Position numbers and translations under genes: made by a program
The notes under the pieces: generated by a model
Seen by the model: only the letters and a program-made list of their open reading frames with translations
Databases searched by the model: none
What the model was told of the DNA's origin: nothing
From: a virus
Reading direction: 5' to 3' (one strand)
Virus record (IMG/VR): IMGVR_UViG_3300045988_170943
Coordinates: 288,001 to 352,000 of that record
Length of the DNA stretch: 64,000 nucleotides
Shown here: positions 26,084-63,774 of the stretch, piece after piece
Numbering within the stretch: the first letter of the stretch is position 1
Layout: every line of letters starts with the position of its first letter

Positions 26084-26271
26084 GCGGGTGAGAACTGCCT
26101 TAATCGGGCGGGGCATATAGACCTATTTTGTGACCCCGTGGCGGAGATTAGTGCTATCTGAGCGTAAGCCCCGCCACTGCGAGCGACGGTTTCGGTATCA
26201 TCCCCTATAGGCAGAAAAGAGGCGCCTCTCACCTAAGAGAGGTCGATGACGCAAACCGGAAGAGGTAGCCG

Positions 26272-27087: not shown

Positions 27088-27109
27088 CATAGGCGAGAGG
27101 GAGTAGCCA

Positions 27110-28270: not shown

Positions 28271-28962
28271 CCATACACTTGTTGACGGCAGTATTCGGTG
28301 GCGTATCATCACTGATCCTACTGTTCGTGACTATGCTGTACTCCCCGGGCTGGGTTGACAGGGGCCGCTGGCAATTAGTGAACGTGCTAGCCTTCGTGAC
28401 ATCTACTGTATCCAGCATCTTCACATCCGCGATGCTCCCTTCTGGTGATGTTACGCACTGGCTCACGGCCGTGGCCGGGGGCGTGTCAGTAGGAACAACC
28501 GTGTTCGTCACCACCCAGTGCGCCTACACGGACTTCACCTACCGGAAGGGTGACAGGTGGACTCTGCGTGCAGCGATAGCGATGAACGCTGCCACAGGTG
28601 GGGTCAGCCTGTTCCTGGAGCCCGCGCGCACTCAGGGTGAGCGGTGGTTGTTCGTCCTCCTGGTGCTTCTGTCACTGGTGCTGTTTCTGATCCCGTCCCT
28701 GGGTAAGTCGGATGCCCGCGCCACTCTCTTAAGTGTTCTGGCGACTTACCCGATGGTGGGGGTCCTGGGCGTCCAGTGGGGCCTGATCGTCCTGGCGCTG
28801 GTTCTGGGGGTGTATGGGGTGTCCTCATCGGTGCGGATGATGTGGGGCGTGAAAGGTACATTGAGGGGTGTATTCCGGGAGAAGATGAGTATTCCCATGG
28901 TCCCACTCATCACTGGATCATTCCTGATTGCAGAGATATGTGCAGCACTGGCCCAACAGTAG
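28267..28962 (+). CDS. polytopic membrane protein
   Basis: 231 aa, ~6 TM helices. Confidence 0.5.
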   Translation: MTIHLLTAVFGGVSSLILLFVTMLYSPGWVDRGRWQLVNVLAFVTSTVSSIFTSAMLPSGDVTHWLTAVAGGVSVGTTVFVTTQCAYTDFTYRKGDRWTLRAAIAMNAATGGVSLFLEPARTQGERWLFVLLVLLSLVLFLIPSLGKSDARATLLSVLATYPMVGVLGVQWGLIVLALVLGVYGVSSSVRMMWGVKGTLRGVFREKMSIPMVPLITGSFLIAEICAALAQQ

Positions 28963-29020
28963 GCGGCGATATTCTGGTGAGTTTAATCACGGCCCTCCCT
29001 GGCAGGAGAAAGGCACACAA

Positions 29021-29980
29021 ATGAGCGACATCCTGGATTCTATCGACGAACTTGATGACATTGAGGACGGCGACCTCGACGTTGAAGACACTCACCCTAT
29101 CTCCATTGTCACGGGAGTCAACGATGACGACGGTGATAACTACTTCAATGAAGATGATGATGAGGAGGAAGACCTCGCCGCCGAGATGAGCAGTATCCTG
29201 GACGCCGAGGACACTCAGGCATCAGAGATGGGGCAGGCTGAGGCACAGGAGATAACCAACGCCATCAAATCCGCCGCAACTGTCACCTATGCCCTACTCG
29301 CTAAGGCCCACGAAGGTAAGGCTCACCAGTCACTCGGGTACGACTCGTGGGGCGAGTACGTCAAGGCCGAGTTCGAGATGAGTCCACAACGCTCATACCA
29401 GTTGCTTGACCTGTCTAAGGCCGTCAAGATGATCGAGGCCGCCGCACCAGAAGGCACCCATATCAAACTCACAGAGGCCCAGGCCAGAGACCTGAAGCGT
29501 GAATTACCTCGAATCACTGAACGCATCCATGAAGAGACCACCGGCAAGACCCCGGAAGAGTCACGAGAGATCATCGACGACATCGTTCGTGAGGAACGTG
29601 AGGAGAAGATCCAGAAGCGAGCCGAGGACAAGGCCCACAAGAGCCGAGAACAGGAAATGGACGAGGCCCGCGACGAAGGCTATCGTGCAGGCCTGGAGTC
29701 CGCCGCTGACGCCATCCTAGAGGCCGACGCAGAAAGGCAGGCTGTCAACGAGCCAGACGGTGGGCTCATGGACGTGGAGGTCGAAGGGGACATCAATCAG
29801 GCTGGCCGTGCAGAATACATGAAATTAGTTCAGGCGCTCGTCATGAACAGCAATATGGGTGACCCACAGGACATTGTTGACGCCATCCCGGAGAACAACT
29901 TTGAGGACATCTACGACCGGGTGATAGACACTGCTGGCCTATGGAACCGTATCGCCAACTACATGGACCTCAGGCGTTAA
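29021..29980 (+). CDS. acidic protein with HTH-like segment (GYDSWGEYVKAEF...SYQLLDLSKAV)
   Basis: RBS ggcaggagaaaggcacacaaATG; extremely acidic N-terminus. Confidence 0.55.
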   Translation: MSDILDSIDELDDIEDGDLDVEDTHPISIVTGVNDDDGDNYFNEDDDEEEDLAAEMSSILDAEDTQASEMGQAEAQEITNAIKSAATVTYALLAKAHEGKAHQSLGYDSWGEYVKAEFEMSPQRSYQLLDLSKAVKMIEAAAPEGTHIKLTEAQARDLKRELPRITERIHEETTGKTPEESREIIDDIVREEREEKIQKRAEDKAHKSREQEMDEARDEGYRAGLESAADAILEADAERQAVNEPDGGLMDVEVEGDINQAGRAEYMKLVQALVMNSNMGDPQDIVDAIPENNFEDIYDRVIDTAGLWNRIANYMDLRR

Positions 29981-30087
29981 AGGAGCACCAGGTCCCTGAA
30001 ACAGCCCTCAGTGCGGTGGCAGCAAGCGTCGGTAATATGTGCTCAGGAAACACCCAACCACGAGCCCTATTCTGACGGAGAGCGCCA

Positions 30088-32028
30088 ATGGATAACACAA
30101 CACCCGAAACAGCGGACACGACCTCACAGGTTGGTCCGCTGTTTACTCTCATCCAGGACTCCTCCAACTACCAGCCGGTACCCCACGAAACTCTCCCAGA
30201 GGTCATCCAGGACACTATTGGTCGCACCATGGTAGCCTTGTGCAATTCTGAGCGCGGCCGGGTCATGGTCATTGGGGATGTCAGGTCAGGTAAGACATTT
30301 TTCGTCAATCATCTTGCTCAGGCCGTCAGCGACTTCACCACGGAGAAGGAATACGCGCCTGTCTACTTCATCCGGGTTAATGAGAAGGCGCTCCCGGCCA
30401 TGATGTCTGAGGACGGCACAGTCAGCATGAGCGCCATCATTGATCATGTATGTGACGCCCTGAAGTGTGCGGATAGCCAGGTGTGCGTCGTCACCGAAAA
30501 TCCGTCTATGGCGGCGGTCCTCCAGCAGAACACCACCGATGTGAAGGTCATCCTGGAGGCGGTCACTGACACCCTGTTTAGTGACGAGGCAGAGACCGCG
30601 AAGTCGTTCATGTCGTGGGATGCTGCTGACACAGCGGACATGTTACTGACCGCAAAGGAGACAAGCCTGCTGGTTAAGGCGGCGTTCTGGGGTAAGGCCA
30701 TCGACATGTACCCGACAGACGAGGTTGATGACACTATCATCGACAGCCTCATTCGTCGTATCGTGCGCAATGACGCCATGATCCAGAAGGACGGGAAGCG
30801 GAAAGTCCTGAACGTGCCGTTCGGGCAGTGGGGAGACATTCTCACTGACGTTACTGGCACCGTAGTCATGTCCAAATCGAAGCGCATCCGTGAAGCCGAT
30901 GGCAGTATCTCCGTCAAGGGGCTCACTAAGTACATCATCAAGCAGAACCGTGACATCCTTGAGAACAGTGAGGACGAGGGACTGGTCGCGCTCGCTGCAC
31001 TCTTTGGTGGCGACACCGACAGCAGTCAAGACGTGAAGAAGAGAAAGAAGCGCAAGCCACTGAAGTTCAACAGCCTCAAAAACCTCAAGACAGCCCTCTC
31101 TGGCAGCATCATCGGGCAGGAGAAGGCGCTGGATGCGATCACCCGACAGGTCACAGTACCCATGTCTGGAATGTCCCGCGAAGGTAAGCCGTTGCGGTCT
31201 CTCATGTTCTGTGGCCCTACCGGCACGGGGAAGACTGAGACCGCTAAGGTTATCGCCAAGCATCTCCTGAAGAAGGGGGAGATGAACCTTGTGCGCATCG
31301 ACATGTCTGAGTTCGCTGAGAAGCACGAGTACACGAAACTGCTCGGCGCACCCCCAGGGTACGTGGGGTATGAGACCGGCGGGGTCCTTACCCGTGCGGT
31401 GGCAGCGAACCCTCGGTCTGTAGTTCTCCTGGACGAGGTAGAGAAGGCCCACCCGGACATCTGGAACCAGTTCCTCCAGATCCTTGACGCCGGGCGCATG
31501 ACAGACAGTAACGGGCAGGTCGTAGACTTCACACAGACAATAATCATCATGACCTCCAACCTTGGTGCCGCCGAGATGTCCCGCACCAGAGCAGGCTTCG
31601 TCACCATGGACTCGGGTCAGGCATACACGGATCGGGAGCGGAACGCCACTAACGCAGTTATGAGGTCTGTGGAGAAGACCATGCTCCCGGAACTCATCAA
31701 CCGGATAGACGAGATCATCGTGTTCAGCGAAATCCGACCTGAGGCAGCCCGCGAGATCGCCGTGAAGGAGATCAAGAGAATCCGGGACACCCACAGCACT
31801 AGCGTCCGCACCATTATGGACGCACCCCATGATATTGTCGATGAAATCTTAAAAAAGTCGAACATCAGCAAGTATGGGGTCCGCGAGATTCAGAGAACCG
31901 TTGAGAAGATGATCGTGAACCCACTCGCTACGGCTATCGCAACCCACCCTGACGGCAACACATTCACGTTTGAGATGTCTCAGGACGGTCAGGTCATTGT
32001 TCGCGCCGCCACCGAAGAAAGCGACTAA
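30088..32028 (+). CDS. ClpA/ClpB-like AAA+ ATPase (intact D2, degenerate D1)
   Basis: C-terminal half LMFCGPTGTGKTETAK...VVLLDEVEKAHPD...IIIMTSNLGA is a canonical Clp D2; N-terminal GDVRSGKTFFVNHLAQ is a diverged Walker A. Confidence 0.7.
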   Translation: MDNTTPETADTTSQVGPLFTLIQDSSNYQPVPHETLPEVIQDTIGRTMVALCNSERGRVMVIGDVRSGKTFFVNHLAQAVSDFTTEKEYAPVYFIRVNEKALPAMMSEDGTVSMSAIIDHVCDALKCADSQVCVVTENPSMAAVLQQNTTDVKVILEAVTDTLFSDEAETAKSFMSWDAADTADMLLTAKETSLLVKAAFWGKAIDMYPTDEVDDTIIDSLIRRIVRNDAMIQKDGKRKVLNVPFGQWGDILTDVTGTVVMSKSKRIREADGSISVKGLTKYIIKQNRDILENSEDEGLVALAALFGGDTDSSQDVKKRKKRKPLKFNSLKNLKTALSGSIIGQEKALDAITRQVTVPMSGMSREGKPLRSLMFCGPTGTGKTETAKVIAKHLLKKGEMNLVRIDMSEFAEKHEYTKLLGAPPGYVGYETGGVLTRAVAANPRSVVLLDEVEKAHPDIWNQFLQILDAGRMTDSNGQVVDFTQTIIIMTSNLGAAEMSRTRAGFVTMDSGQAYTDRERNATNAVMRSVEKTMLPELINRIDEIIVFSEIRPEAAREIAVKEIKRIRDTHSTSVRTIMDAPHDIVDEILKKSNISKYGVREIQRTVEKMIVNPLATAIATHPDGNTFTFEMSQDGQVIVRAATEESD

Positions 32029-51950: not shown

Positions 51951-52173
51951 AGACCAGGCGACACAACCTACCGCAAGTGCGAGCACATGTGACAAGCGCT
52001 CCGAATCTAAACCAGCCCCACTCACCCGCACGCTTACTCAGTGGAAGCGAATCAGTGTAGGCGTCAGGTCGCGCACCGTCCGCCACGCACTGAGTAGAAA
52101 CATGCCCGCAGCCCACATGGCGGGGATCCCTCCCCCACCCCCAATAATGTGACTTAGATCACAGCGGGAGGGG

Positions 52174-52203
52174 TTGACAGTATCACCCACCACCATGGTA
52201 GAG
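52174..52203 (+). promoter_or_regulatory. sigma70-like promoter candidate
   Basis: ttgaca - 19 nt - tagagt. Confidence 0.25.
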
Positions 52204-52291
52204 TATGGGCACAACAACATCGGGGGTTGCGGACACCACCTCAAACCCAGGGAAACCAGGGAGTGAGACAGGAGCTACAACCGGTAAGGGT

Positions 52292-52320
52292 TGACAAGCC
52301 CGAACCAACCTGATATTGTT
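52292..52320 (+). promoter_or_regulatory. sigma70-like promoter candidate
   Basis: ttgaca - 17 nt - tattgt. Confidence 0.35.
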
Positions 52321-53298
52321 GCTCCAACAACACCGACACGAGCAACAGAAGGAGGTCGGTCACATGTTGAGTAATCAGATTCAGCACAAACAATCAAATA
52401 CCGCCCTCTGGCTCACACGCCATGAGCGACCATATAGTATGGTGGCCGTGACGTGGGGAGAAAACCCCGGTCGGTTTGATAAGTCCTCGCACTGAGGCAG
52501 ACAATCTGACAGGTTAGGCTCCCGAGACACCGGTAGAGCAAAGAACAAGTGACGCGGTTCACAGAAACCAGCACTTGACAACAGAAAACCTGAATACTTA
52601 GGATTGTGACTGAGGCCGACAAAACTGTGACGGCCAAGGACCCCAAAAGGCCCAAGAAGGTCAGAGCACCTACACGATGACCCGCCGAGATGGTGGCGAG
52701 GTAGGGAACGGACTGGAGTAAGCCAAACGGGGACACTGAAACCAATCAGTTAAACCGCCTCAAAACAATCCTCCTGGAACCACAACAACCCCCAGGCAAC
52801 AACTAACCCACCTCGCAAGGGGCAGGTGAAGTCAAGCCCAAGGGAATATAGTGAGAACAGGCCCAAACTGAATAAGAGGACCACCCCGATCACAGGGTGG
52901 AGGAAGACTCAACAGGCGCACCCCACACTGGCAAAGGTGCGGGAACAAAACGCCTGGGATTGCCCCAATCGGGAGGGCTCGTAGATAGGAAAATCCCGTG
53001 TCTGATGGCGACGTCAGTCCGCCCCAGCAGCAAGCCAAAACTACTGGGGCAACGTGCGAAGGACTGACAAGAACTTGAAAGTATTGTCGTGATGACAAGA
53101 CCAGATAACTAGCCATTGGGCGCCGCTCATGCGGATATAAGAAACAATAACCCTCACTGGGAAGGCGACAACTGGTTATGTCCAGGAAAGACCAGGACCA
53201 GATCCGTCCCCCATGACCCAGTGAGGCGAGTGTGGAGGATTGGAGGCAGCGGACACCTCCACACAGCACAACAACTCCCTAAAACACGGGAGTAACTT

Positions 53299-53371
53299 CG
53301 GCGTGTAGCGCAGTTTGGTAGCGCACCTGTTTCGGGAACAGGGGCCACAGGTTCAAATCCTGTTACGCCGA
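53299..53371 (+). tRNA. tRNA-Pro (CGG)
   Basis: manual cloverleaf: acceptor cggcgtg/tacgccg, anticodon loop ttCGGga, T-loop ttcaaat. Confidence 0.7.
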
Positions 53372-53425
53372 CGACGAGAACACTAAAAGGCGTCAACAAG
53401 CATGACAACAAGTGCTCTCACAAAT

Positions 53426-53510
53426 GTCACGGTAAAGCGTAACTGGTAGCGCGCCGGTCTGTAAAACCGGTCTGAAAGGTCTGTGGGTTCAAGTCCCACC
53501 CGTGGCACCA
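53426..53510 (+). tRNA. tRNA-Tyr (GTA), type II, CCA encoded
   Basis: anticodon loop ctGTAaa, long variable arm, T-loop ttcaagt, 3' CCA. Confidence 0.7.
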
Positions 53511-53511
53511 T

Positions 53512-53595
53512 TCTCCTGTAGTTTAATGGCAAAACAGGTGACTGTTAATCACTCATTTCAGGTTCGAATCCTGGCGGGAGAGCCAATTACGAAAC
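53512..53595 (+). tRNA. tRNA-Asn (GTT), CCA encoded
   Basis: anticodon loop ctGTTaa; acceptor tctcctg/cgggaga; 3' gCCA. Confidence 0.65.
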
Positions 53596-53649
53596 ACAAG
53601 TTGCGGCACAACCTTCAACAAAATACAGGAACACGTGCCTACAACAAAT

Positions 53650-53732
53650 GCTCTTGTGGCGAAATGGTATACGCAGCAGACTTAAAATCTGTCTCCCTTG
53701 CGGGATTAAGGGTTCGAGTCCCTTCAGGAGCA
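53650..53732 (+). tRNA. tRNA-Leu (TAA), type II
   Basis: anticodon loop ctTAAaa, long variable arm, T-loop ttcgagt. Confidence 0.7.
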
Positions 53733-53733
53733 C

Positions 53734-53819
53734 GGTGTATGTGGTGGAATAGGTATACACACCAGGTTGTGGCCCTGGGTCCATATGGACACATGCGGGT
53801 TCGATCCCCGTCATACACC
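53734..53819 (+). tRNA. tRNA-His (GTG)-like with 8-bp acceptor (G-1:C73) and an unusually long variable hairpin
   Basis: ggtgtatg/catacacc 8-bp acceptor; anticodon loop ttGTGgc; extra hairpin gtccatatggac between anticodon and T arms. Confidence 0.5.
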
Positions 53820-54099
53820 CGATGGAAGCAAGTCCGGGCAACTGCTTTCTGACACATGAAGAGACGCGAGTGAAAATCTCGCTGGTTCCTACAATGGAGC
53901 CATAGTTTGTGAATGCAGTGAATGTGTTTGCAACAAGGTGCGACCGCAATCGAGTACATGTGGCGTTGCAACCACACGTACTACTCCTCCGCAAGAGGAG
54001 ACATCCTGCACAACGACTGACAGTACCAAAACACTTCATGCATCAAAAATAGAGATGCCAGAATGGCTACTATAAAGCCTTCAAAGTTGCTTCCACCAC

Positions 54100-54173
54100 T
54101 GGCGTGTGGCGCAGTAGGTTAGCGCGGCACTCTGATAAAGTGCAGGTCGTGAGTTCAAATCTCACCACGCCAA
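54100..54173 (+). tRNA. tRNA-Ile (GAT)
   Basis: anticodon loop ctGATaa, acceptor tggcgtg/cacgcca. Confidence 0.75.
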
Positions 54174-54174
54174 C

Positions 54175-54258
54175 GGAGAAAATGGTAAAATTGGCTATCC
54201 AACCACCTCGAAAGTGGTGCCTGTAACAGGGCTGGGGGTTCGATTCCCTCTTTCTCCG
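54175..54258 (+). tRNA. tRNA-Ser (CGA), type II
   Basis: anticodon loop ctCGAaa, long variable arm gcctgtaacagggc. Confidence 0.65.
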
Positions 54259-54319
54259 CCGTGAATGAGTTGTCAGTAAGTGGCTTAATGACGTCATTTT
54301 GATAGGTACATTCATCAAT

Positions 54320-54410
54320 GCCCATGTAGTTCAATTGGACAGAACACTCCGCTACGGACGGAGAGGGAGCCGAAAGGCCATTGGGGGTTCAAGTCCCTCC
54401 ATGGGCACCA
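54320..54410 (+). tRNA. tRNA-Arg (ACG)-like with long variable hairpin, CCA encoded
   Basis: anticodon loop ctACGga; extra hairpin gccgaaaggc in variable region; acceptor gcccatg/catgggc; 3' aCCA. Confidence 0.5.
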
Positions 54411-54417
54411 CAACAAT

Positions 54418-54490
54418 GCCACCATAGTGTAAAGGATCCGCACAGGACTCTCCGAAGGTCCCAGTTCAGGTTCGACTCCTGATGGTGGCA
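54418..54490 (+). tRNA. tRNA-Arg (CCG)
   Basis: anticodon loop ctCCGaa; acceptor gccacca/tggtggc. Confidence 0.55.
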
Positions 54491-54508
54491 CGAACTAGAC
54501 ACAATCTA

Positions 54509-54579
54509 CGTGGATTGGCCGAGAGGATAGGCGAGGGTCTGCAAAACCCTAGACACCAGTTCGAATCTGGTATCCACGT
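54509..54579 (+). tRNA. tRNA-Cys (GCA)
   Basis: anticodon loop ctGCAaa; acceptor cgtggat/atccacg. Confidence 0.6.
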
Positions 54580-54580
54580 C

Positions 54581-54677
54581 TGCGGGGTAGAGGAGTTCGG
54601 AGTCCTCGCTGGGCTCATATCCCAGAGAATCTACAACAAACCTTGTAGTGTCGCGGGTTCAAATCCCGCCCCCGCCA
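54581..54677 (+). tRNA. initiator-like tRNA-Met (CAT) with ~26-nt variable-region hairpin insertion
   Basis: unpaired 1:72 (U·C), three G:C pairs closing anticodon loop ctCATat; extra hairpin ctacaa-caaacc-ttgtag before T-arm. Confidence 0.5.
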
Positions 54678-54971
54678 CGGGTCGATACCTTGCAAGAGGC
54701 GTTGACTAGGCTACTCTAATCCTACTATAAGAGTAGCAAAGCAATCGGTGAAACAGGCAAGTGGACCGCAGAACTTCTAGGGCGTCTAGAGAGTAATCTC
54801 TAGATACAGGTGATTTGTAGTTACTTGTCGTTATTCCCAATTGTGTAAGACCCTAGCGCTCTTTTTAAAATCCTTTGCGGTTTTTAAAAATATGTGAGTA
54901 ACCACCTGTACGACTTCTTCATAAGTGCAGAAGCCTATGCTGATGTAGGGTACATGTGGCAGGTGGACAAT

Positions 54972-55044
54972 GGTCATGTAACTCAGATGGTAGAGTACCT
55001 GAACGACACTCAGGAGGCCACAGGTTCAAGTCCTGTCATGACCA
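54972..55044 (+). tRNA. tRNA-Val (GAC)
   Basis: anticodon loop acGACac; acceptor ggtcatg/catgacc. Confidence 0.6.
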
Positions 55045-55129
55045 CGGAAAGTAAGCGAATGGTTAGCGGCCGCTTTGGAACAGTGGTGCCTCGTTAAGGG
55101 GTTGTGGGTTCGAGTCCCGTGCTTTCCGC
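55045..55129 (+). tRNA. tRNA-Ser (GGA), type II
   Basis: anticodon loop ttGGAac; long variable arm. Confidence 0.6.
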
Positions 55130-55306
55130 TACAACAGCACCATAAATCCTACACTATCCTGTGACCCAACACACGCAGAAACACAGTTGACACACTACAA
55201 ACCCACATGGTATGCTAGTGTCATCAAGCAAGGGAGTTGACAACCATGACACCCTCATGGTAAACTTCCTTCAAGCGTTGTTTGAGAACTAGATAGTGGT
55301 AGCATT

Positions 55307-55379
55307 GCCGACTTGGCTCAGTTGGAAGAGCGTCCGGTTGAAGCCCGGAAGGTCAAAGGTTCGATCCCTTTAGTCGGCA
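55307..55379 (+). tRNA. tRNA-Phe (GAA)
   Basis: anticodon loop ttGAAgc; acceptor gccgact/agtcggc. Confidence 0.7.
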
Positions 55380-56301
55380 CGACAGGCATGGCTGATAAAC
55401 CTAGGCGACTAGGCCAAAGGCTATCCCAACGGATGAGGGAAGCCACCCAACCTCCAGGAGGTAGGGCACCCCATGCAATATGCCGGGTTCTAAAGCGTGT
55501 GCCAGCAGATGGCGCACGAACCCCTAAGTGAGGCTCAGGCCCAATGGTAAATACTGAGGGCACGACCAAATCAGTCTCAATGAGCCAGTAACTCACGACA
55601 AGGTTAACCCGACATAAGGGAGAAACAAGTCCGAGACACGCAAAATCAAGGGCGGTCTCCCACCTGGAAACAAGGAAGACCTGATAAGTCTCCCACGTCG
55701 CCAGGAATGGAGCGGGTAGCGCCAATCCTAGAGAATGTGAGGACTTTCGTGGGCCAAAATCCCATGAACCTCTAGGGAAGCACATTCTCACAATCCTCAC
55801 AATAACAACGCAAAAGACTTCCCTGATTACTGGATGAAAATGTCCTAAACCTGACGGCCGTATGGTCAAGTCAGGCTGAGATGAGACCGCAAGTCTCACC
55901 CCAGTTGGGTAGACGGAAGTGCAACCCAGCAGGTCGCGTCTGCTGCGTGAAACATCCCACCCGAGTAGCCCAGTAATCTACAGAGTGATTCACTCAAAGA
56001 ATCGGGCATGACGTTCTAACACGGTACGCCTGGAAACAGGGTGCCATGTGGACAAGCAGGCAACACGGTAAACGTGGTAATCCTGACGAAAGGAACGTCG
56101 GAACAAGGTATAGTCTCAGCCTCATCACCTCAACTTACTTATGTGCCCCACAGAGTCTAGGGTTTCTGTGGTGGACCACCCACATGGAGTGGTTTCAGAC
56201 AACCAGCGGCACGACGAATCCAGTGGATAAACTGCCCATTAATACTATGGATTTTATCCTAAGGAGTAGTCATACCCTCAGCCATGTTCAAAACAACAAA
56301 T

Positions 56302-56376
56302 GGCCCTATGGTCCAGCCAGGTTAGGACGCCTCCCTGTCAAGGAGGAGATCGCCGGTTCAAATCCGGTTAGGGTCG
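56302..56376 (+). tRNA. tRNA-Asp (GTC)
   Basis: anticodon loop ctGTCaa; acceptor ggcccta/tagggtc. Confidence 0.7.
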
Positions 56377-56413
56377 CTATCCCAGGTGGTGCGCAACAAG
56401 CCTGGGAACAAAT

Positions 56414-56486
56414 TGGCCTATAACTCAATTGGCAGAGTGATCCGCTGTTAACGGATTGGTTGAAAGTTCGAGTCTTTCTAGGCCAG
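56414..56486 (+). tRNA. tRNA-Asn (GTT), second copy
   Basis: anticodon loop ctGTTaa; acceptor tggccta/taggcca. Confidence 0.6.
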
Positions 56487-56640
56487 CGCAAAGGTCACCC
56501 GGTTTGAGAGACCGTACTAGCAAAGCACAGTCAAAATAGGTTGGTGATCGCCTGACTCGTGTGCTGCCTGTCCTGAGTGTGCTCTCAACATGCTCGCAGT
56601 TACTTTATGGCCTGGCCTTGAGGATACGACCAGGTTACTT

Positions 56641-56732
56641 GGAGGGTTCGCATAGCCAGGTTTATTGCGCTCCCCTGCTAAGGGAGTAGGGCCTAAAAAC
56701 CCTCATGGGTTCAAATCCCATACCCTCCGCCA
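56641..56732 (+). tRNA. tRNA-Ser (GCT), type II, CCA encoded
   Basis: anticodon loop ctGCTaa; long variable arm; 3' gCCA. Confidence 0.7.
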
Positions 56733-56759
56733 TCACACATACAGCAAACATGTGTGAAT

Positions 56760-56834
56760 GCCCTGTTGGTCTAGTCTGGTTAGGATGCCTCCCTCTCAAG
56801 GAGGAGATCGCCGGTTCAAATCCGGTACAGGGTA
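56760..56834 (+). tRNA. tRNA-Glu (CTC)
   Basis: anticodon loop ctCTCaa; body nearly identical to tRNA-Asp at 56302. Confidence 0.6.
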
Positions 56835-57319
56835 CGCAGAAGAGGACTCCACACACGGTGCTCAACTAGCCGGGAGCCTGCACAGGTGCCCTCTGCCACC
56901 AAAATCACCTTTCTGTGAGGTCAGGGAGTAGTTACCCTGGGGCAGAAGGAAAGAATGGTGACAAGGTTTCATATCCTGTCCTCCACCTCCACAGCAGATT
57001 CTCTCAAGGGTACCTAATTTGGGAGAATTGAATCCTCCGGGACGTGTGACTGGGACGTGAGACCTCATGAATGTTCTAGACAGGAGGTCGTCTGGTGCCA
57101 TGGTGGTATGCGCATTAAAGATGGTTCGAATCCATCCACCAGATCTATTTCAAAACCTACCCGAAAGAAACCCTGGCGGCTTTGTGTACAGTGCCGCGCT
57201 ACCCAGGGCGTGCTTTTTCAGAGAAGAGTTCTGTACCACCTTTATTCATAAAAGAATAAAAGGTCGGCGAGACATTTTCTGAAAATGCTAGGGCAGGCTC
57301 GAAAACTGTACACATTAAC

Positions 57320-57410
57320 GCCCCTATAGCTCAGTTGGTAGAGCAGCGGACTTTTAATCCGATGGCAGGTCAATAACGACCGATCGTGGGTTCGAGCCCC
57401 ACTGGGGGCA
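57320..57410 (+). tRNA. tRNA-Lys (TTT) with ~23-nt variable-region hairpin insertion
   Basis: anticodon loop ctTTTaa; extra hairpin ggtc-aataac-gacc before T-arm; acceptor gccccta/tgggggc. Confidence 0.5.
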
Positions 57411-57441
57411 CTATTTCAAGTGATTCGTTATAATGTGAATT

Positions 57442-58155
57442 ATGAACGAAGATTTGAAAGTATGTGGCATCTACGGCATTTTTGACACACTTACAGGAGA
57501 ATGCCTCTATGTAGGCCAGTCAAAGAACATTTATGAGCGCCGCCAATCTCATTTCAAGCGTCTTCGTGGAGAAAGACACCTTAAACCATTTACAGAATGG
57601 TTTGTCAGTATTGGAAAAGATGAGTCCAGACTGGATCTCAGGGTTCTTTGTAGATGTTTCGATAATGACGACATCAAGAACGAACTTGAAATCTTCTGGT
57701 TCAATGAACTTCACCCAAGATTCTACGGTGCTGTTCCGTCTGTCAACAACAGGTGGTCTCATTCAGAAGAGACTAGGAAGAAGATTGCTAGGAGGACATG
57801 TGAGTCTGAGCGACTTGGAAAGCATTATACATGTGCAGTGTACTATTACACATGTAAAATGTGTGACAAGTTTTTCGCCTCTTCAAGAAGGAAATCTAAA
57901 AAGCATATCTTCTGTTCAAAGCCATGCTCCCGCGCTTATGAAAAATCTCTGAAAATGGACACCCTTGATTACAACAGAGTTAAAAACTTGTATGAGTCTG
58001 GTGTTACTCAAGTGAAGATCGCTAAGGTGTTTGGTGTGTCGAATGCCACTGTCTCCAAGTTCATGAGAGACAATGGCATTTCTACAGGATACAAGCGTCA
58101 TGATCCTGGGCTGAAGAGGAAGTCTAGGAAGACAAGCAATGCGGATGTGGTGTAA
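57442..58155 (+). CDS. GIY-YIG homing endonuclease
   Basis: GIYGIF...CLYVGQSKNIYERRQSH (GIY-YIG), C-terminal HTH; last codons overlap tRNA-Gly. Confidence 0.85.
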   Translation: MNEDLKVCGIYGIFDTLTGECLYVGQSKNIYERRQSHFKRLRGERHLKPFTEWFVSIGKDESRLDLRVLCRCFDNDDIKNELEIFWFNELHPRFYGAVPSVNNRWSHSEETRKKIARRTCESERLGKHYTCAVYYYTCKMCDKFFASSRRKSKKHIFCSKPCSRAYEKSLKMDTLDYNRVKNLYESGVTQVKIAKVFGVSNATVSKFMRDNGISTGYKRHDPGLKRKSRKTSNADVV

Positions 58156-58214
58156 CGGTAGCACAAGACCCTTCCAAGGTTTTAGAGCGAGTTCGAGTCT
58201 CGTCATCCGCTCCA
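58141..58214 (+). tRNA. tRNA-Gly (TCC), CCA encoded
   Basis: anticodon loop ctTCCaa; acceptor gcggatg/catccgc; 3' tCCA. Confidence 0.65.
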
Positions 58215-58407
58215 GTCACTTTTTTGGCAGTCAGGAATACATGTGACCTAACTCATGTTTCCTGAGGTTGACTCACTCCTTGCTGGTGTGTTAGGATTGA
58301 GTCATCAAGCGGGGCAGGGGCGTTCTTCATAAGTCCTGGCGGCCATTGAGTCCAGAAATGGGAGCAGTGGTTTTAGAAGATTGTCAACTACATAGTGACT
58401 AAACAAT

Positions 58408-58480
58408 CCGCCTATAACTTAACTGGTTAGAGTACTTGCCTCTTAAGCTTGGAGTCCTGGTTCGAGTCCAGGTGGGCGGA
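58408..58480 (+). tRNA. tRNA, possibly Lys (CTT), weak anticodon stem
   Basis: good acceptor, D and T arms; anticodon stem has two U·U mismatches around loop ctCTTaa. Confidence 0.4.
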
Positions 58481-58736
58481 CGATCACCATAGCACCAGGT
58501 TTTGACGTGGCCGGTGCTGCCTCATCTAGTTTAATGACAGAACGCCGCGTGCTCACACATGCACGGGGAAGACAGGTTTGATTCCTGATTGGGGTTGTCG
58601 TTTGTGATTCAGGTCATGTGGGATTAAGATATGTGTGCACCCCTTGACTTGCACGTCAGCACTCACTTTTTAACATGCACAACAAGGTAAGTTTACTTCC
58701 GTTGATATTCCAACGGAAGTTAGGAGTCTTGTTTAT

Positions 58737-59366
58737 ATGGATGTTATATGTGGAGTTTATGCTATTTTTGATTCAAGTACAAATGAATGCTTGTATGTTG
58801 GCCAGTCAAGTAATGTGCTATTACGATTCAAGAAGCACTTGTATTTGTTAAAGTCAAGAAAGCATAGGAAGGATTTTGTGGCGTGGTTTGAAGATCGTAA
58901 TTTCGACGCTAAAGCCATTAGGTTTGAGATAATGGAGATATGCGATAATGAGGATAATATAAAAAACTCACTTGAAATAAAGTGGTTCAATGAGTTGTCT
59001 CCGAAATTTTATGGTCAAGTTCCATCCATGAATAGCAAGTGGTCTCATTCGGAAGAAACTATTTCTAAAATAAAAGATCACTCCCAAAGAGGGTGCAAGA
59101 TATTTTACTACGACTGCGAAAGTTGTGGTAAGGTTTTTATATCTAACAAAAGAAGATATAAGAAACATGTATTCTGTAGTGTGAAATGTAGTTCAAGCCA
59201 CTTTTCTATAGTTAACAAATTTGACTACGATACAATATCTGGTATGTATGCTAGTGGTATGACTCAATGTGAAATTGCGAAAGAACTCAATGTTTCAAAT
59301 ACGAGCATATCAAAATTTATGATGTTAAATGGAATCTCAACTGGATATTCCAAACACAAAAAATAG
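58737..59366 (+). CDS. GIY-YIG homing endonuclease (paralog, AT-rich)
   Basis: GVYAIF...CLYVGQSSN, NSKWSHSEET shared with first copy; much lower GC than surroundings. Confidence 0.85.
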   Translation: MDVICGVYAIFDSSTNECLYVGQSSNVLLRFKKHLYLLKSRKHRKDFVAWFEDRNFDAKAIRFEIMEICDNEDNIKNSLEIKWFNELSPKFYGQVPSMNSKWSHSEETISKIKDHSQRGCKIFYYDCESCGKVFISNKRRYKKHVFCSVKCSSSHFSIVNKFDYDTISGMYASGMTQCEIAKELNVSNTSISKFMMLNGISTGYSKHKK

Positions 59367-59441
59367 CGGAATGTAGCTCAGGTGGTAGAGCGCTCGCTTT
59401 GGGAGCGAGAGGTTTCGCGGGTTCGAGCCCCGCCATTCCGA
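59367..59441 (+). tRNA. tRNA-Pro (TGG)
   Basis: anticodon loop ttTGGga; acceptor cggaatg/cattccg. Confidence 0.7.
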
Positions 59442-59553
59442 CTGGGTGAACCGGAGGAGGGCCTATCCGCGGCATGGGCTTTCTTCCACATAGGAGTTGC
59501 TGTCAGTACTTGTGGACGCACAGGGTAGCGGGTGACCGAATGAGTATGGTGAG

Positions 59554-59624
59554 TGGCTTATAGTTTAATGGCAGAAGGCTCGACGGAAATCGAGTGGACA
59601 AGGTTCGATTCCTTTGAAGGCCAG
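59554..59624 (+). tRNA. tRNA-like gene with non-canonical (6- or 8-nt) anticodon loop
   Basis: acceptor and T-arm (ttcgatt) present; anticodon hairpin ctcga-cggaaa-tcgag gives a 6-nt loop, or an 8-nt loop with a 4-bp stem. Confidence 0.35.
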
Positions 59625-59635
59625 CCCAATTTCTT

Positions 59636-59719
59636 GGTAGTGTGTGCCGAGTGGCGAAGGCAACTGACTGTAAATCAGCGACGTTAGAAACACCGGGGGT
59701 TCGACTCCCTCCACTACCA
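59636..59719 (+). tRNA. tRNA-Tyr (GTA), second copy, type II
   Basis: anticodon loop ctGTAaa; long variable arm; acceptor ggtagtg/cactacc. Confidence 0.6.
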
Positions 59720-59837
59720 CTGCTGTGCAAGAATCTCACGCAAAATTGGCTACCCGCGTGTGAACAGTGAGGGTTCGACTCCCTCATCGAGTGATTAGCC
59801 ATCTCGGGGCGGTCCCTGGTGCTTGCATGGTTTTCTT

Positions 59838-59910
59838 GGGGATGTAGCACAATTGGTGGTGCGCCTGCTTTGCAAGCAGATGGTTGCGGGTTCGAGTCCC
59901 GTCTTCTCCA
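59838..59910 (+). tRNA. tRNA-Ala (TGC)
   Basis: G3:U70 pair, anticodon loop ttTGCaa. Confidence 0.65.
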
Positions 59911-59967
59911 CAACCTTTCGGTAAATATTCCGTGAGGGTGAACATCTTTCAGAAGGGAAAGAGCAGT

Positions 59968-60204
59968 ATGGATCGCAAGCAGGCTCTAGAAGTTTTGGCA
60001 AGGGATTTCTCTGCTGGCAATACTGAGTGTGATGCCGATGAGTATATGTCGCTCGCAGAGGCATTCGATGGCTATGGGTTAGATTATGAAGATGACAATG
60101 ATGGCACCATTGATGGTTTTGCTAATAGTTTGCGCACTCTAGCCCGATCGATTCAGCCTAGTCATAGCGAAATTGATGAGGCTGTTAAGGTTCTTTCCTC
60201 TTGA
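59968..60204 (+). CDS. small acidic hypothetical protein inside tRNA array
   Basis: 78-aa ORF from internal ATG with RBS gaagggaaagagcagtATG. Confidence 0.4.
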   Translation: MDRKQALEVLARDFSAGNTECDADEYMSLAEAFDGYGLDYEDDNDGTIDGFANSLRTLARSIQPSHSEIDEAVKVLSS

Positions 60205-60263
60205 CGAAAGTCTTCCTGTATTACGCTTGCATTTGAGATTTTTGGTAGGTGTGGTGCAGGTTT

Positions 60264-60339
60264 GCTCGCTTAACTCAGTTGGTAGAGTGGATCTCTTACA
60301 AGGATTTGGTCGGGGGTTCAAGTCCCTCAGCGAGCACCA
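60264..60339 (+). tRNA. tRNA-Val (TAC), CCA encoded
   Basis: anticodon loop ctTACaa; 3' aCCA. Confidence 0.7.
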
Positions 60340-60347
60340 TTGCTTTT

Positions 60348-60419
60348 GCCGGTGTAGCCAAGTGGTAAGGCACCTCTCTCATAATGAGGTCATCGCTGGT
60401 TCGATTCCAGCCATCGGTA
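60348..60419 (+). tRNA. tRNA-Met or Ile2 (CAT), elongator type
   Basis: anticodon loop ctCATaa. Confidence 0.55.
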
Positions 60420-60424
60420 CTTAT

Positions 60425-60495
60425 TCCCCCTTGGTGTAGTGGCAGCACAACCGACTTTGGATCGGTTAGCCTAGGTTCGAGTCCTGGCGGGGGAG
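60425..60495 (+). tRNA. tRNA-Gln (TTG)
   Basis: anticodon loop ctTTGga. Confidence 0.6.
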
Positions 60496-60537
60496 CGACG
60501 CTGTGGCGTGCTTTTTGGGGTGCGTGTTGGCGTTCTT

Positions 60538-60609
60538 TGCCTCTTAGTGTAATTGGTAGCACGACTGATTCTGGTTCAGTTATTCTAGGTTCGAGTCCTG
60601 GAGGGGCAG
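60538..60609 (+). tRNA. tRNA-Gln (CTG)
   Basis: anticodon loop ttCTGgt; acceptor tgcctct/aggggca. Confidence 0.65.
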
Positions 60610-60989
60610 CGATGTGAGATGGTTTCAACTGGTGCTGGTGGGCCTAGTGTTTTCAGGGTTCCTTTCCAGTTCATGACCTTGGATGACGCGACGTTTTGTT
60701 TGCGCCACGTTGCTATACTGTCTCATATTCTCCCAGTTTGCCTGACACTGGGGTCTAGGAAGTCGGGTGTCTAGCGTAGAGACCGTCCCGCTGGTAGGGC
60801 GGCGAGCCGGTTGTCATGAAGCCGGTACTTTTGCTCACGGGTTGCGCTAGTTGCCGGGCATTAGTGGACTTTGCTTGGTTTTGTGGGAAGTGGTGGAAGT
60901 TGGACGTTCTGCTGCGATTTTGTTTTCTGGTGTCACCTGCTCTTGTTAGACTTATTCCTCCTCTTGCGGGGTGGGTGGCGCCGGAATAT

Positions 60990-61061
60990 GCAGATGTGGT
61001 GTTAATGGTAGCACGCGACCTTGCCATGGTTGTAGAGCGGGTTCGAGTCCCGTCGTCTGCT
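60990..61061 (+). tRNA. tRNA-Gly (GCC)
   Basis: anticodon loop ttGCCat; acceptor gcagatg/cgtctgc. Confidence 0.65.
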
Positions 61062-61191
61062 CGGAGTTCATGGAGATGTGTAGTGGTTTGGTTACTTCAT
61101 ATTTGGGTTATGTATTGCACCGGATTACGTCTTTTCTCTCTGTGTCTCTTTTTCTTGATCCTGTCACGTTCTTGTGGCAGGGTTATTGTTT

Positions 61192-61265
61192 CCGGGTGAC
61201 GCTATTGGCTTTTAGCGGGTGATCTCCAAAGTCACTGTCATTGGGGTTCGATTCCTCCACCCGGG
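61192..61265 (+). tRNA. tRNA-Trp (CCA)
   Basis: anticodon loop ctCCAaa; acceptor ccgggtg/cacccgg. Confidence 0.65.
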
Positions 61266-61670
61266 GCGGGCTGCTCATGGCCTGAAACTGTTGGGTGATT
61301 GATGTGTTCTTTCATTCTCAGTGTTTTAGGTTGTGGGTCGTTCATTGGGCATTGAGGTTCTTCCACGGTTCATGGGCGGCTGGTGCTCTTGAGCAACGCA
61401 TTGCGATGATGTTAGTGAACTCCATCTGGTGTGTTGTGCTGCTGCGGCACAAGGGGACCTTCGCAGTTGCCTCTTGTGTGGTTCCCTGTGCTGTTCGAAG
61501 TGGTTGACAATACGGGGTGCGGTCGGGTTTATGCTGACAAGACCTGTCCGCCACACGGAGGCTTGCTGGTAGCAACAGTAAAGCACGCTTCCCTTTGATG
61601 CTGCGAGTGTGTGCTGTGGTCGCTCGTCAATCGTGTGTTTGATTCTTTGGGGCCCTTTTTGGGGATGTAG

Positions 61671-61743
61671 CACAACTGGTAGTGCGTCCGCTTGGCTTGC
61701 GGGAGGTTACGGGTTCGAGTCCCGTCTTCTCCACTATGGGGTT
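61671..61743 (+). tRNA. tRNA-Ala (GGC)
   Basis: G3:U70; anticodon loop ttGGCtt; body nearly identical to Ala(TGC) copy. Confidence 0.65.
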
Positions 61744-62451
61744 CTGGCCTCACCCCTTGGCGTCTTTCGTGCAGGCACCTAAAACGGGAGGACACTTTTC
61801 GGAGTGTCGCCTTGTGGGAGGCTGCGTGCTGGTGTCAGGATGGAGTGGCCGAGTAGCGGGACTTGTAATCCTGTGATGCGGGTAGCGTTTGCTGATTGTG
61901 GCAGGCGTCCGACTGAGGCGGTACGACACTGTGTTCTGGCGCTGTCACGCCTTTAAACGATGTGCTTTTCGCTGTCTGGTTGAGTAGCGTCATAGACACC
62001 TTGGGTTGCTCCAAAGGGCTTGTTTCTGTGGCGTGAAGCGGGACGCCTCTTTCTTAAGAAGAGGGTGTGCAGGTAGTCCGAATGAAAGCGTTACTCAGAG
62101 AGGAGTGACTTCCTTTTTGACTTATGGTGTGAGCGCATTGACCTTAGTGATGGCTGGAACACACTGACCTTGAACATGTTGGGTTGGTGTCGCAGATTCG
62201 ACGTCTGCCGCTAGGGCTGATTTTGATTTGGTCGCAACGAGCGCTATCTTATGATAGTGAAGATTGTCGTTGCTGGCTACAGGTTTTCTTTACCATTCAG
62301 GATAGATAAGGTATTGAGTAACCTGTTTTCTGTGCCTTGTGTATTGGTGGTGACCGTTGTGCCTAGAGTCCATGTTCGTCCTGACACGCATGAGATTGAG
62401 CGTTGTCGTGCCGTGAAGGGGCCATGCAGTTTTGGCACATGCTATGACACC

Positions 62452-63774
62452 ATGGACGAGGCTGAGCATGTGCGTAAGGGTCTCCTATTGCAGGAGGCGA
62501 AGAGCCTGTATGGCGAAACCTGTGTCACGGCATACGACATGAGTCTTCCTGCCGGTGTTGATGGTGTGCTGAAAGACCTTAGTAGTGTGGGGAATCCTCT
62601 GGTTGTTGGTGGTGCTGTTCGTGACTCCTTGAGTGGTCACGCCAGTAAGGATATTGACATAGAGGTTCATGGCTCCAGTATTGGCCGCATCATTAAGTAC
62701 CTGAAAGGACAGGGGTACCATGTTGATGAGGTGGGGCGCCAGTTTGGGGTGCTCAAGGTCTCCAAGGGTGGGGTGAAGAACCTTGACGTGTCTGTCCCGA
62801 GGCGTGAGAACCGTGTTGGTGTGGGTCATAAGGCGTTCGCGGTCGAGTTCAGTGAGAACATGAGTGTTTCTGAGGCGGCCGAGAGAAGAGACTTTACGTT
62901 TAACGCGATCATGTACGACCATCACAGGGGCGTCATCGTTGACCCAACTAATGGTGTCAGTGACTACCGTGACCGGGTGATGCGTGCGGTCTCTGACAGG
63001 TTCAGTGAGGATCCTTTGCGTGTCCTCAGGGGCTTCCAGTTCGCGGCAAGGTTCGGTATGCGCTACGACGAGGACACGGCCAGAATGTGTCAAACTATTC
63101 GGGAAGAGTACAGTGACCTGTCGGTGGAGCGTGTGCGTGAAGAGTTCCACAAGTTCTTCACTAAGGGTGAAGACTACAGTGCTGGCGTGAGGGCGCTCCA
63201 AGACTCTGGTTGGGACAGTATTGAGCCTGGTCTGCGAGAGTCACTGGACGGTAGTCGAACTGTGGCTGCCCTCAACAACCTCACTGAACTTGACCCTAGT
63301 CAGCGTTCTGTCATTGGTGCCGCTATCATCCTCAAAGGGATCTCTACCCGTTCCGATAGGGAGAACTTCGCCAGAGTCGCCACAATGAGTAAGAGTGAGG
63401 CCACTCAGGCGATAACCCTCAGCGAGTTGGGTCACTCTGACATGTGTGACGACTATACTCTCAGGAAGACTGCTCTGGCGCTCGCCAGGAAAGGGACCTC
63501 ATACAGGCAGGTTCGCGCACTAGCGAAAACCTGTGGTGACAGCAGCATGGTGGCAGCCACCAATAAGGCAATCAAGATGGGCATGGGTGACAGACCCGCA
63601 CCGGATCTTGTTACTGGGAAAGACATTCTCCCTATATCTGGTCGAGTTCCTGGGAGGTGGGTTGGTGACCTGCTGGACCAGGTGCGTGAGGCTCAGTACA
63701 AGGGTGAGGTGACTAGCCGCCACCAGGCGCTCGATCTTGCACGGCGACTCACCAACAGCCTGGAAGACGACTAG
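62452..63774 (+). CDS. cca: tRNA nucleotidyltransferase (CCA-adding enzyme, class II)
   Basis: head-domain motif GGAVRDSLSGHASKDIDIEV (GGxVRD...DxD) and RRDFTFNA; in-frame upstream extension to 62251 is less likely. Confidence 0.8.
   Translation: MDEAEHVRKGLLLQEAKSLYGETCVTAYDMSLPAGVDGVLKDLSSVGNPLVVGGAVRDSLSGHASKDIDIEVHGSSIGRIIKYLKGQGYHVDEVGRQFGVLKVSKGGVKNLDVSVPRRENRVGVGHKAFAVEFSENMSVSEAAERRDFTFNAIMYDHHRGVIVDPTNGVSDYRDRVMRAVSDRFSEDPLRVLRGFQFAARFGMRYDEDTARMCQTIREEYSDLSVERVREEFHKFFTKGEDYSAGVRALQDSGWDSIEPGLRESLDGSRTVAALNNLTELDPSQRSVIGAAIILKGISTRSDRENFARVATMSKSEATQAITLSELGHSDMCDDYTLRKTALALARKGTSYRQVRALAKTCGDSSMVAATNKAIKMGMGDRPAPDLVTGKDILPISGRVPGRWVGDLLDQVREAQYKGEVTSRHQALDLARRLTNSLEDD

Follow-up and report, generated by a model that had tools for sequence, protein, structure and literature searches.

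GOLLD RNA, reportedly described by Weinberg et al. in 2009, is among the largest bacterial or phage non-coding RNAs. The GOLLD RNA env-38, whose structure is known from cryo-electron microscopy (cryo-EM), forms a homo-oligomeric 14-mer cage made of RNA only, and ROOL RNA also forms an RNA-only cage (PMC12286853). The literature places GOLLD in phages and prophages, often near tRNA islands, with an expression that rises in lytic growth, and a horizontally acquired "32-tRNA cluster" of mycobacteria holds GOLLD together with an HNH endonuclease (PMC6582537). A second kind of RNA enters the comparison made below: in ISDra2, the right-end element RNA (reRNA) of TnpB takes ~150 nucleotides (nt) from the 3' terminus of tnpB and the adjoining right end of the element, followed by ~16 nt of flanking sequence that serve as guide (PMC8612924). 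Here we analyze positions 288,001 to 352,000 of IMG/VR virus record IMGVR_UViG_3300045988_170943, a stretch of 64,000 nt that we call the window. It carries a phage-type gene set and 31 tRNA genes, all on the + strand, at 53299-61734 (ARAGORN). Within this same-strand array, 921 nt separate tRNA-Phe from tRNA-Asp (ARAGORN and Rfam). The gap is real, is non-coding and is made of two parts, an RNA gene and, behind it, an insertion of 162 nt. We assign the first part, 55381-56122 (+), with high confidence to a GOLLD RNA gene, the second part being a separate fragment of a mobile element.

The GOLLD RNA gene and its relatives

A preliminary description of this DNA had taken the gap for a structured non-coding RNA in a tRNA cluster, possibly a stable RNA like species 1 and 2 of phage T4, and had proposed an Infernal search with the Rfam models. 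That search identifies GOLLD; the description was thus right about a large structured RNA gene and, concerning T4, right in spirit. Model RF02032 (GOLLD RNA) matches 55730-56122 (+) with 147.5 bits and an E value of 6.7e-41 when the surrounding 1.4 kb (55100-56500) are searched, and with an E value of 5e-40 when 10 kb (52000-62400) are searched. The match covers model positions 1-416 of 416 and is not truncated. Conserved GOLLD sequence begins 2 nt past tRNA-Phe (ACAGGCATGGCTGATAA...) and stops at ...GGTATAGTCTCAGCCT (56122), a length of 741 nt. The features that mark members of the family were found together: a full-length match to the model, a structured and variable 5' domain, a variable linker and a location in a phage tRNA island.

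A pattern taken from the 3' domain located 16 loci in IMG/VR and 35 in metagenome assemblies. The IMG/VR viral contigs of these relatives measure 30-398 kb, nearly all of them 200-398 kb, and the metagenome contigs reach 547 kb. After removal of duplicates, 30 distinct full-length sequences remained, which fall in two clades. Members of the window clade are 96-99% identical to the window, whereas those of the second clade reach 87-90% identity with it in the 3' domain and about 65-70% in the 5' domain, the latter with several indels. The bacterial and archaeal genomes gave 0 matches for the GOLLD pattern and 0 for a pattern of the right end of the mobile element treated below, so no host or prophage was found there. 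A short pattern of the 3' end (AAGGNRTANTCTCAGNCT) hit 119 loci when run over viral contigs, 3 of them relatives. For the remaining 116, nhmmer with a single sequence or with profiles detected no similarity to this GOLLD subfamily; these loci may be chance matches or GOLLDs beyond its reach. Some GOLLD sequences are mosaic: L163, of the window clade, holds blocks of the second clade in its 3' domain, and L151, of the second clade, holds the CGCG loop of the window clade, which suggests recombination between phage lineages.

Concerning coding capacity, the preliminary description held that the gap has no plausible + strand open reading frame (ORF) and that its ORFs are either antisense or overlap the tRNAs. 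The ORF listing agrees: both + strand ORFs run into tRNA genes and the largest ORF is antisense (Table 1). None of these three ORFs, of 72, 125 and 193 amino acids (aa), has a Pfam match. Across the 30 homologous sequences each + frame contains 4-19 stops, the antisense frame is broken in most, with 65-128 aa as the longest stop-free stretch there, and no relative has an intact ORF at this place. The lack of Pfam matches and the broken frames across 30 homologues show that the gap is non-coding. The G+C content of the gap region (0.51-0.54) had been called lower than that of the neighbouring genes. This holds against the genes upstream (0.55-0.60); however, the value is ordinary for the tRNA array and higher than that of the endonuclease islands downstream (0.35-0.44).

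The two domains differ in how they are conserved. In the 5' domain the sequence varies and the structure is kept: the consensus fold of the 30 sequences has 87 predicted pairs, and 98.2% of the sequence-by-pair cells hold standard pairs. In 26 of these pairs both sides change, compared with 19.3 in column shuffles (0 of 500 reached the observed value) and 1-5 when the partners were slid by 1-3 columns. A set of 15 sequences gave 67 pairs, 100% paired, 17 of which change on both sides; shuffles gave 8.4 such pairs and slid controls 0-2. In the 3' domain, 99.7% of 114 predicted pairs are kept over the 15 sequences, variation being scarce and mostly wobble-compatible. Exceptions are the 3'-terminal hairpin (helix 16), where A-U replaces G-C at the middle pair in 7 of the 15 sequences, and hairpin cACGguaaaCGUg (cACG/CGUg), where A-U goes to G-C in 7 of 15. 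The segments that the preliminary description had noticed as internally complementary do pair, ctagagaatgtgagg (55728-55742) with cacattctcaca (55781-55792), and they form the first hairpin of the GOLLD model. No stretch of the 3' half is less conserved than the linker behind this hairpin, and ARAGORN finds no tRNA inserted in this linker.

One loop of the 3' domain (55934-55938) holds a self-complementary tetranucleotide in both clades (55935-55938 in the window), which switches between CGCG and AGCU. Since neighbouring bases are unable to pair within one loop, the switch points to pairing between two RNA copies. Loop L21a of the published GOLLD structure (bridge B8, nt 656-657 of env-38) is a symmetric kissing loop between copies (PMC12286853). 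The window loop lies at a comparable distance into the 3' domain and would be the counterpart of L21a. The conserved 3'-terminal loop of GOLLD, UAGUCUCAG, is also present in the window. A long-range pairing proposed by RNAalifold between GAGAC, invariant in the 5' domain, and GUCUC in the 3'-terminal loop was dropped because neither side ever varies; in the published structure the contacts of the 3'-terminal loop fall within the 3' domain (PMC12286853). RNAalifold also differs in one long-range helix of the 3' domain from Rfam, which pairs GAUUACUGG with CCAGUAAUC. Both versions of this helix are invariant in the set, so the data cannot choose between them and the pair counts given for the 3' domain describe a mixed structure.

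The surroundings of the gene are conserved as well. Two sigma-70-like sites, P1 and P2 (Table 1), precede tRNA-Phe. In 19 distinct upstream regions both TTGACA and the -10-like boxes are kept in both clades while the spacers vary, and segment GTCATCAAGCAAGGGAGTTGACAACC at P2 is invariant; it is this conservation that argues for calling the sites promoter-like. tRNA-Phe stands directly upstream of GOLLD in every relative and, in relatives without the insertion, tRNA-Asp starts 15-18 nt past the end of GOLLD. Judged by this arrangement, the two promoter-like sites, tRNA-Phe, GOLLD and the following tRNA are one conserved unit. GOLLD would then be co-transcribed with the tRNAs and freed by tRNA-processing nucleases. 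The genes of tRNA-Phe and tRNA-Asp, as read from the sequence, lack an encoded CCA; cleavage at the 3' end of the CCA-less tRNA-Phe would create the 5' end of GOLLD, and the RNase P cut at tRNA-Asp would bound its 3' side. The freed RNA would fold into its two domains, the 5' one variable and the 3' one conserved, and, by homology to the GOLLD of known cryo-EM structure, its copies may assemble into a large RNA-only cage during lytic growth. The array is followed directly by a gene for a tRNA nucleotidyltransferase, the CCA-adding enzyme (62251-63774; phrog_2244, E 7e-53). Because 31 tRNAs and this enzyme adjoin GOLLD, our best guess is that its task is tied to the tRNA and translation apparatus of the phage itself.

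Several points weigh against the assignment. The RF02032 score is 2.5 bits under the Rfam gathering cut-off of 150 bits, for which reason GOLLD is missed by a default Rfam scan; run over the whole window, that scan returned tRNAs only. The Rfam GOLLD model spans the 3' domain and leaves out the 5' domain. The fold of the 5' domain was predicted from the same alignment that served for the pair counts and, as there are just two main clades, many of its double changes may stem from few events. The promoter scan did no better than shuffles (3 sites found, 2.4 expected). A blastn "distant" search of the gap in 50,697 phage records detected no relative among cultured phages, and tblastn of the same collection with a 953-aa protein of the window returned nothing. 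Finally, transcription, processing and oligomerisation of this GOLLD are all inferred.

The first of these points also concerns the preliminary description, which had named the lack of an Rfam hit above threshold as a finding that would speak against its proposal. Formally this is almost the case, but the E value is that of a clear match and orthologues pass the cut-off. Four copies of the second clade (L122, L120, L056 and L124), whose 3' domains have 87-90% identity with that of the window, score 151.4-154.6 bits. As these pass and the window copy falls just under, the subfamily straddles the Rfam threshold. The short linker of the window RNA, where 40 model positions are deleted, accounts for part of the score lost against the Rfam model.

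Table 1. Features of the gap between tRNA-Phe and tRNA-Asp and of its borders (window coordinates).
Feature	Position	Strand	Basis or remark
Promoter-like site P1: TTGACA, 18-nt spacer, TG-TATGCT	55187-55216	+	10/12 consensus positions, extended -10 TG
Promoter-like site P2: TTGACA, 18-nt spacer, TG-TAAACT	55237-55266	+	10/12 consensus positions, TG
tRNA-Phe (GAA)	55307-55380	+	ARAGORN, Rfam; no encoded CCA
ORF, 72 aa	55313-55531	+	Overlaps a tRNA
ORF, 193 aa, largest in the gap	55318-55899	antisense	
GOLLD RNA gene, about 741 nt	55381-56122	+	Rfam match; 30 distinct full-length homologues; non-coding
GOLLD 5' domain	55381-55729	+	349 nt; sequence variable, structure conserved
GOLLD 3' domain	55730-56122	+	RF02032 model positions 1-416
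First hairpin of the 3' domain	55730-55790	+	Alignment to the Rfam model; helices 1-3 of the predicted fold
Short variable linker	55791-55809	+	Model positions 69-108 deleted
Hairpin loop UCGCG, self-complementary CGCG	55934-55938	+	UAGCU (AGCU) in the other clade
ORF, 125 aa	56046-56423	+	Overlaps a tRNA
3'-terminal hairpin GGU-AUAGUCUCA-GCC	56107-56121	+	End of the Rfam model
Insertion, 162 nt	56123-56284	+	Flanked by CTCAGCC repeats at 56115-56121 and 56277-56283
Orphan copy of tnpB 3' end and right end (omega/reRNA scaffold position)	56141-56279	+	Homology to the 505-aa TnpB-like gene
Native spacer, 17 nt	56285-56301	+	Common to empty and occupied alleles; precedes tRNA-Asp
tRNA-Asp	56302-56377	+	ARAGORN, Rfam

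The insertion between GOLLD and tRNA-Asp

Empty alleles delimit the insertion. In the near-identical L150 and L143 the sequence runs ...TCTCAGCCT|TGTTCAAAACAACAAAT|tRNA-Asp, also written ...GTCTCAGCCT|TGTTCAAAACAACAAAT|tRNA-Asp; L169, L163, L159 and L140/L160 are free of the insert too. The empty site between GOLLD and tRNA-Asp reads GGTATAGTCTCAGCCTTGTTCAAAACAACAAAT. Besides the window, L130, L101, L142, L164/L168, L137, L170, L139 and L166 carry the insert. Its end, CTCAGCCA, is an imperfect repeat of CTCAGCCT just upstream of the insert. Judging from these alleles, 56123-56284 is not part of GOLLD. In four members of the second clade (L121, L125, L151 and L144), GOLLD ends in ...CAGCCA, and what comes next is not a tRNA but an A+T-rich segment (ATGTTATTAAAAAATAATGATATTACC...). 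This segment is a further insertion at the spot that the window insert occupies, so the 3' end of GOLLD may be an insertion hot spot.

Most of the insert, the core at 56141-56279, shows homology to the 3' end of a 505-aa TnpB-like gene, namely its last 43 codons and about 15 nt beyond them. This core is found again at other places in the related genomes, at a distance from any tRNA. Six full-length copies share 76-82% identity with it over the matching part, and by tblastn it covers residues 463-501 of 505 in two frames. In all copies the conservation of this right-end module stops at ...GTCATACNCT. The window copy lacks a ribosome-binding site (RBS) and, frameshifted by a 4-nt insertion (CCAC), runs into a stop after 29 codons; tblastn found no tnpB in the 64-kb window. 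For these reasons we file it as an orphan fragment and not as a TnpB system. An earlier reading of the tail as an ORF of 43-46 aa with an RBS was dropped, since the ORF listing in the relatives shows it to be the C-terminus of the 505-aa protein.

The full-length protein occurs in the relatives as an ORF of 500-508 aa (for example L174:1501-3000 and L136:4725-6242). It matches Pfam PF07282 (Cas12f1-like TNB domain) above the cut-off of that family, with E values of 9e-13 and 2e-14. The NCBIfam model guided_TnpB gives 56-57 bits, under its cut-off of 100 bits, and Cas12f2 gives an E value of 8e-13; Cas12f and TnpB chains of the PDB match with E values of 7e-6 to 3e-4. From these matches, the protein is a distant member of the TnpB/Cas12 nuclease superfamily, whose marks are a RuvC-like nuclease and a zinc-ribbon (TNB) domain. 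Six full-length copies of the gene share contigs with GOLLD relatives; inverted repeats of about 21 nt lie at the two termini of the element. The flanks of two copies map to the window at 25737-27094 / 27098-28585 and at 27462-28952 / 28955-30287, with 96-98% identity. Hence sites 27094-27098 and 28952-28955 are empty there. The insertions missing from the two sites measure 1.65 and 1.67 kb in L173 and L174, site 27094-27098 of the window retains a stub of the left end of the element (ACTATGACATAGGC), and small indels or substitutions beside both junctions set the empty alleles apart from the occupied flanks. In a 398-kb relative, another orphan right-end module (L056:195-560, - strand) lies inside a tRNA-like gene, between the anticodon arm and the 3' strand of the T arm plus acceptor stem, and splits this tRNA by about 190 nt; the intact counterpart of the split gene is a tRNA-Asn in L032.

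The insert is most likely a decaying fragment of this TnpB-type mobile element, carried on the tRNA-GOLLD transcript. An unlikely alternative casts module 56141-56279 as a functional guide RNA that would share a transcript with GOLLD and the tRNAs and be bound in trans by a TnpB-like nuclease that the phage would encode elsewhere. Trimming by RNase P at tRNA-Asp would leave a guide of ~22 nt (56279-56301), and the nuclease would cleave empty GOLLD-tRNA-Asp alleles of co-infecting relatives, leading to homing by repair or to damage of a competitor. The module covers the whole region that gives the ~150-nt reRNA in ISDra2 and little else (PMC8612924). In the fold predicted from 12 copies, 5 of the 32 pairs change on both sides and breaks are few, most of the module being protein-coding in the full-length copies; this predicted fold is kept though the reading frame is lost, and the CCAC insertion falls between helices. 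The second, independent orphan, that of L056, has also lost the frame and carries a compensatory G-C to A-U change, and both orphans are oriented in the sense of the tRNA array. The 22-23 nt from the module to tRNA-Asp would be a sensible guide length if RNase P cuts at the tRNA, and the flank CAGCCATGTTCAAAACAACAAAT differs from the empty allele CAGCCTTGTTCAAAACAACAAAT by one mismatch. Full-length tnpB is found on the same contigs as GOLLD relatives, and occupied and empty alleles co-exist in the population.

The fit of the flank to its own empty site, however, is trivially true of any insertion. The 64-kb window lacks tnpB, and the two sites that carry it in close relatives are empty here. 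Three occupied/empty pairs and seven left ends yielded no consistent ends and no target-adjacent motif, the left ends being degenerate and the junctions carrying indels. Among the orphans, that of L166 is decayed, having an A-C mismatch as well as 1 nt inserted in a stretch that does not vary elsewhere, and those of the window clade have a C-A mismatch at one pair. The protein is distant from TnpB and under the NCBIfam cut-offs, so that its use of this RNA would follow from family architecture only, and no Rfam family matches the module. If the insert did work in this way, it would be a new way to express a guide RNA, a natural counterpart of engineered tRNA-guide RNA arrays and a device for homing or competition of phage against phage. 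We retain the decaying TnpB-type fragment as the most likely reading of these 162 nt.

Other readings of the gap and its neighbourhood

The preliminary description had also offered a decayed intron or homing-endonuclease remnant. In its broadest form this idea takes the whole gap for decayed coding DNA or such a remnant, devoid of RNA function, so that the GOLLD match would show no more than the common descent of dead DNA. Mobile endonuclease genes do occur in the tRNA array (57442-58155 and 58737-59366) and the last 162 nt are truly a remnant of a mobile element, albeit of a TnpB-type insertion sequence. For the GOLLD part we consider decay very improbable. The 5' domain keeps 98% of its pairs through 26 double changes between clades that are about 65-70% identical there, and the 3' domain is 87-99% conserved, which together indicate purifying selection on the RNA fold. 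An intact ORF exists in no relative and no intron family matches; group I and group II introns, tmRNA and 6S RNA gave no Rfam match at E<=10 in 55100-56500 or at E<=1 in 52000-62400.

The proposal of a degenerate or rearranged RNase P RNA, or of another ribozyme-like RNA, is refuted for RNase P by the covariance-model searches and keeps practically no probability: no RNase P model of any type matches at E<=10 in 55100-56500 or at E<=1 in 52000-62400. It had been built on two 10-mers and a looser third string that resemble conserved segments of bacterial RNase P RNA, here compared with that of Escherichia coli (M1). The strings are there, cagggtgcca at 56037-56046, cacggtaaac at 56064-56073 and gaaacaagtccgag at 55622-55635, yet their order and spacing are wrong for bacterial RNase P RNA, and the resemblance is not significant, since 7.4% of shuffled versions of the region also share two 10-mers with M1 RNA. 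Both 10-mers sit in two adjacent hairpins of the 3' domain, the second of them in cACGguaaaCGUg, that are fully explained by the GOLLD model, and the third string covers AAGUCCGAGAC, an invariant segment of the GOLLD 5' domain.

Some other features of the window were recorded along the way. The two endonuclease-like ORFs of the array, of HNH or homing type (PHROG matches with E 4e-9 and 2e-7, respectively), sit in islands of low G+C (0.35-0.44) and look like mobile endonuclease insertions. A tRNA-like match at 59555-59623 is sub-threshold (25.9 bits) and is not called by ARAGORN. At 61191-61267 ARAGORN calls a tRNA-Trp; the best model there is tRNA-Sec (61190-61266), with 35.3 bits, under its cut-off. 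Residues 490-697 of a 749-aa ORF (15509-17758) match an HNH endonuclease (phrog_1314, E 1e-31). For many large ORFs of the window PHROG offers no match, as befits a huge phage that is uncultured.

Comparison with known systems

The locus is a typical GOLLD setting; it leaves the knowledge of the family unchanged, and what is gained is a correct annotation and not a discovery. The orphan fragment resembling a guide RNA is its sole unusual feature. New here is a clade of GOLLD RNAs from very large uncultured phages, with at least 30 distinct sequences that score above or below the Rfam cut-off; because the clade straddles this cut-off, many of its members are missed by routine annotation. Also new are the compact linker, the defined unit of promoter-like sites, tRNA-Phe, GOLLD and tRNA, and the adjoining orphan TnpB right end, which indicates that elements with RNA-guided nucleases move in and out of these tRNA islands. 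The covarying self-complementary loop, the compact linker and the conserved unit lend themselves to comparative studies of how GOLLD is processed and assembled.

Phage T4 makes two stable small RNAs of about 120-140 nt, species 1 and 2, from its tRNA cluster. Like them, the window RNA is a non-tRNA species encoded in a phage tRNA cluster, presumably stable and released by tRNA-processing enzymes; unlike them, it is far longer, and its sequence is unrelated. With ROOL it shares the character of a large ornate phage RNA found near tRNAs, but sequence and fold are unrelated and no ROOL match appeared at E<=1 in 52000-62400.

The module in the insertion compares with the omega RNA/reRNA of TnpB in IS200/IS605-type elements such as ISDra2 (PMC8612924) in that it consists of a tnpB-like 3' end plus right end, has a predicted fold of several helices and is followed by a unique flank. 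In contrast to the ISDra2 type, it is an orphan, its parent element ends in inverted repeats of about 21 nt, which are absent in that type, and the protein, of 505 aa, is distantly TnpB-like. The mycobacterial 32-tRNA cluster is, by its description, close to the window in having a large array in which tRNAs flank GOLLD on either side and HNH genes lie inside (PMC6582537). That cluster lies on a bacterial chromosome whereas ours lies in a huge phage, and the mycobacterial GOLLD contains a pseudo-tRNA, none being present in the GOLLD of the window.

The closest likeness is with GOLLD itself. Like env-38 (PMC12286853), the window RNA has a less conserved 5' domain, a conserved 3' domain and a variable linker after the first hairpin of the latter, yet it is shorter (741 against 833 nt) and so is its linker (about 19 against 42 nt). 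It further agrees with GOLLD in its phage location adjoining tRNAs and in a self-complementary hairpin loop like that of the published kissing loop between copies. It differs from the GOLLD RNAs known so far in its higher G+C content (0.51-0.54), in a score just under the Rfam cut-off and in its occurrence in uncultured phages with contigs of 200-550 kb.

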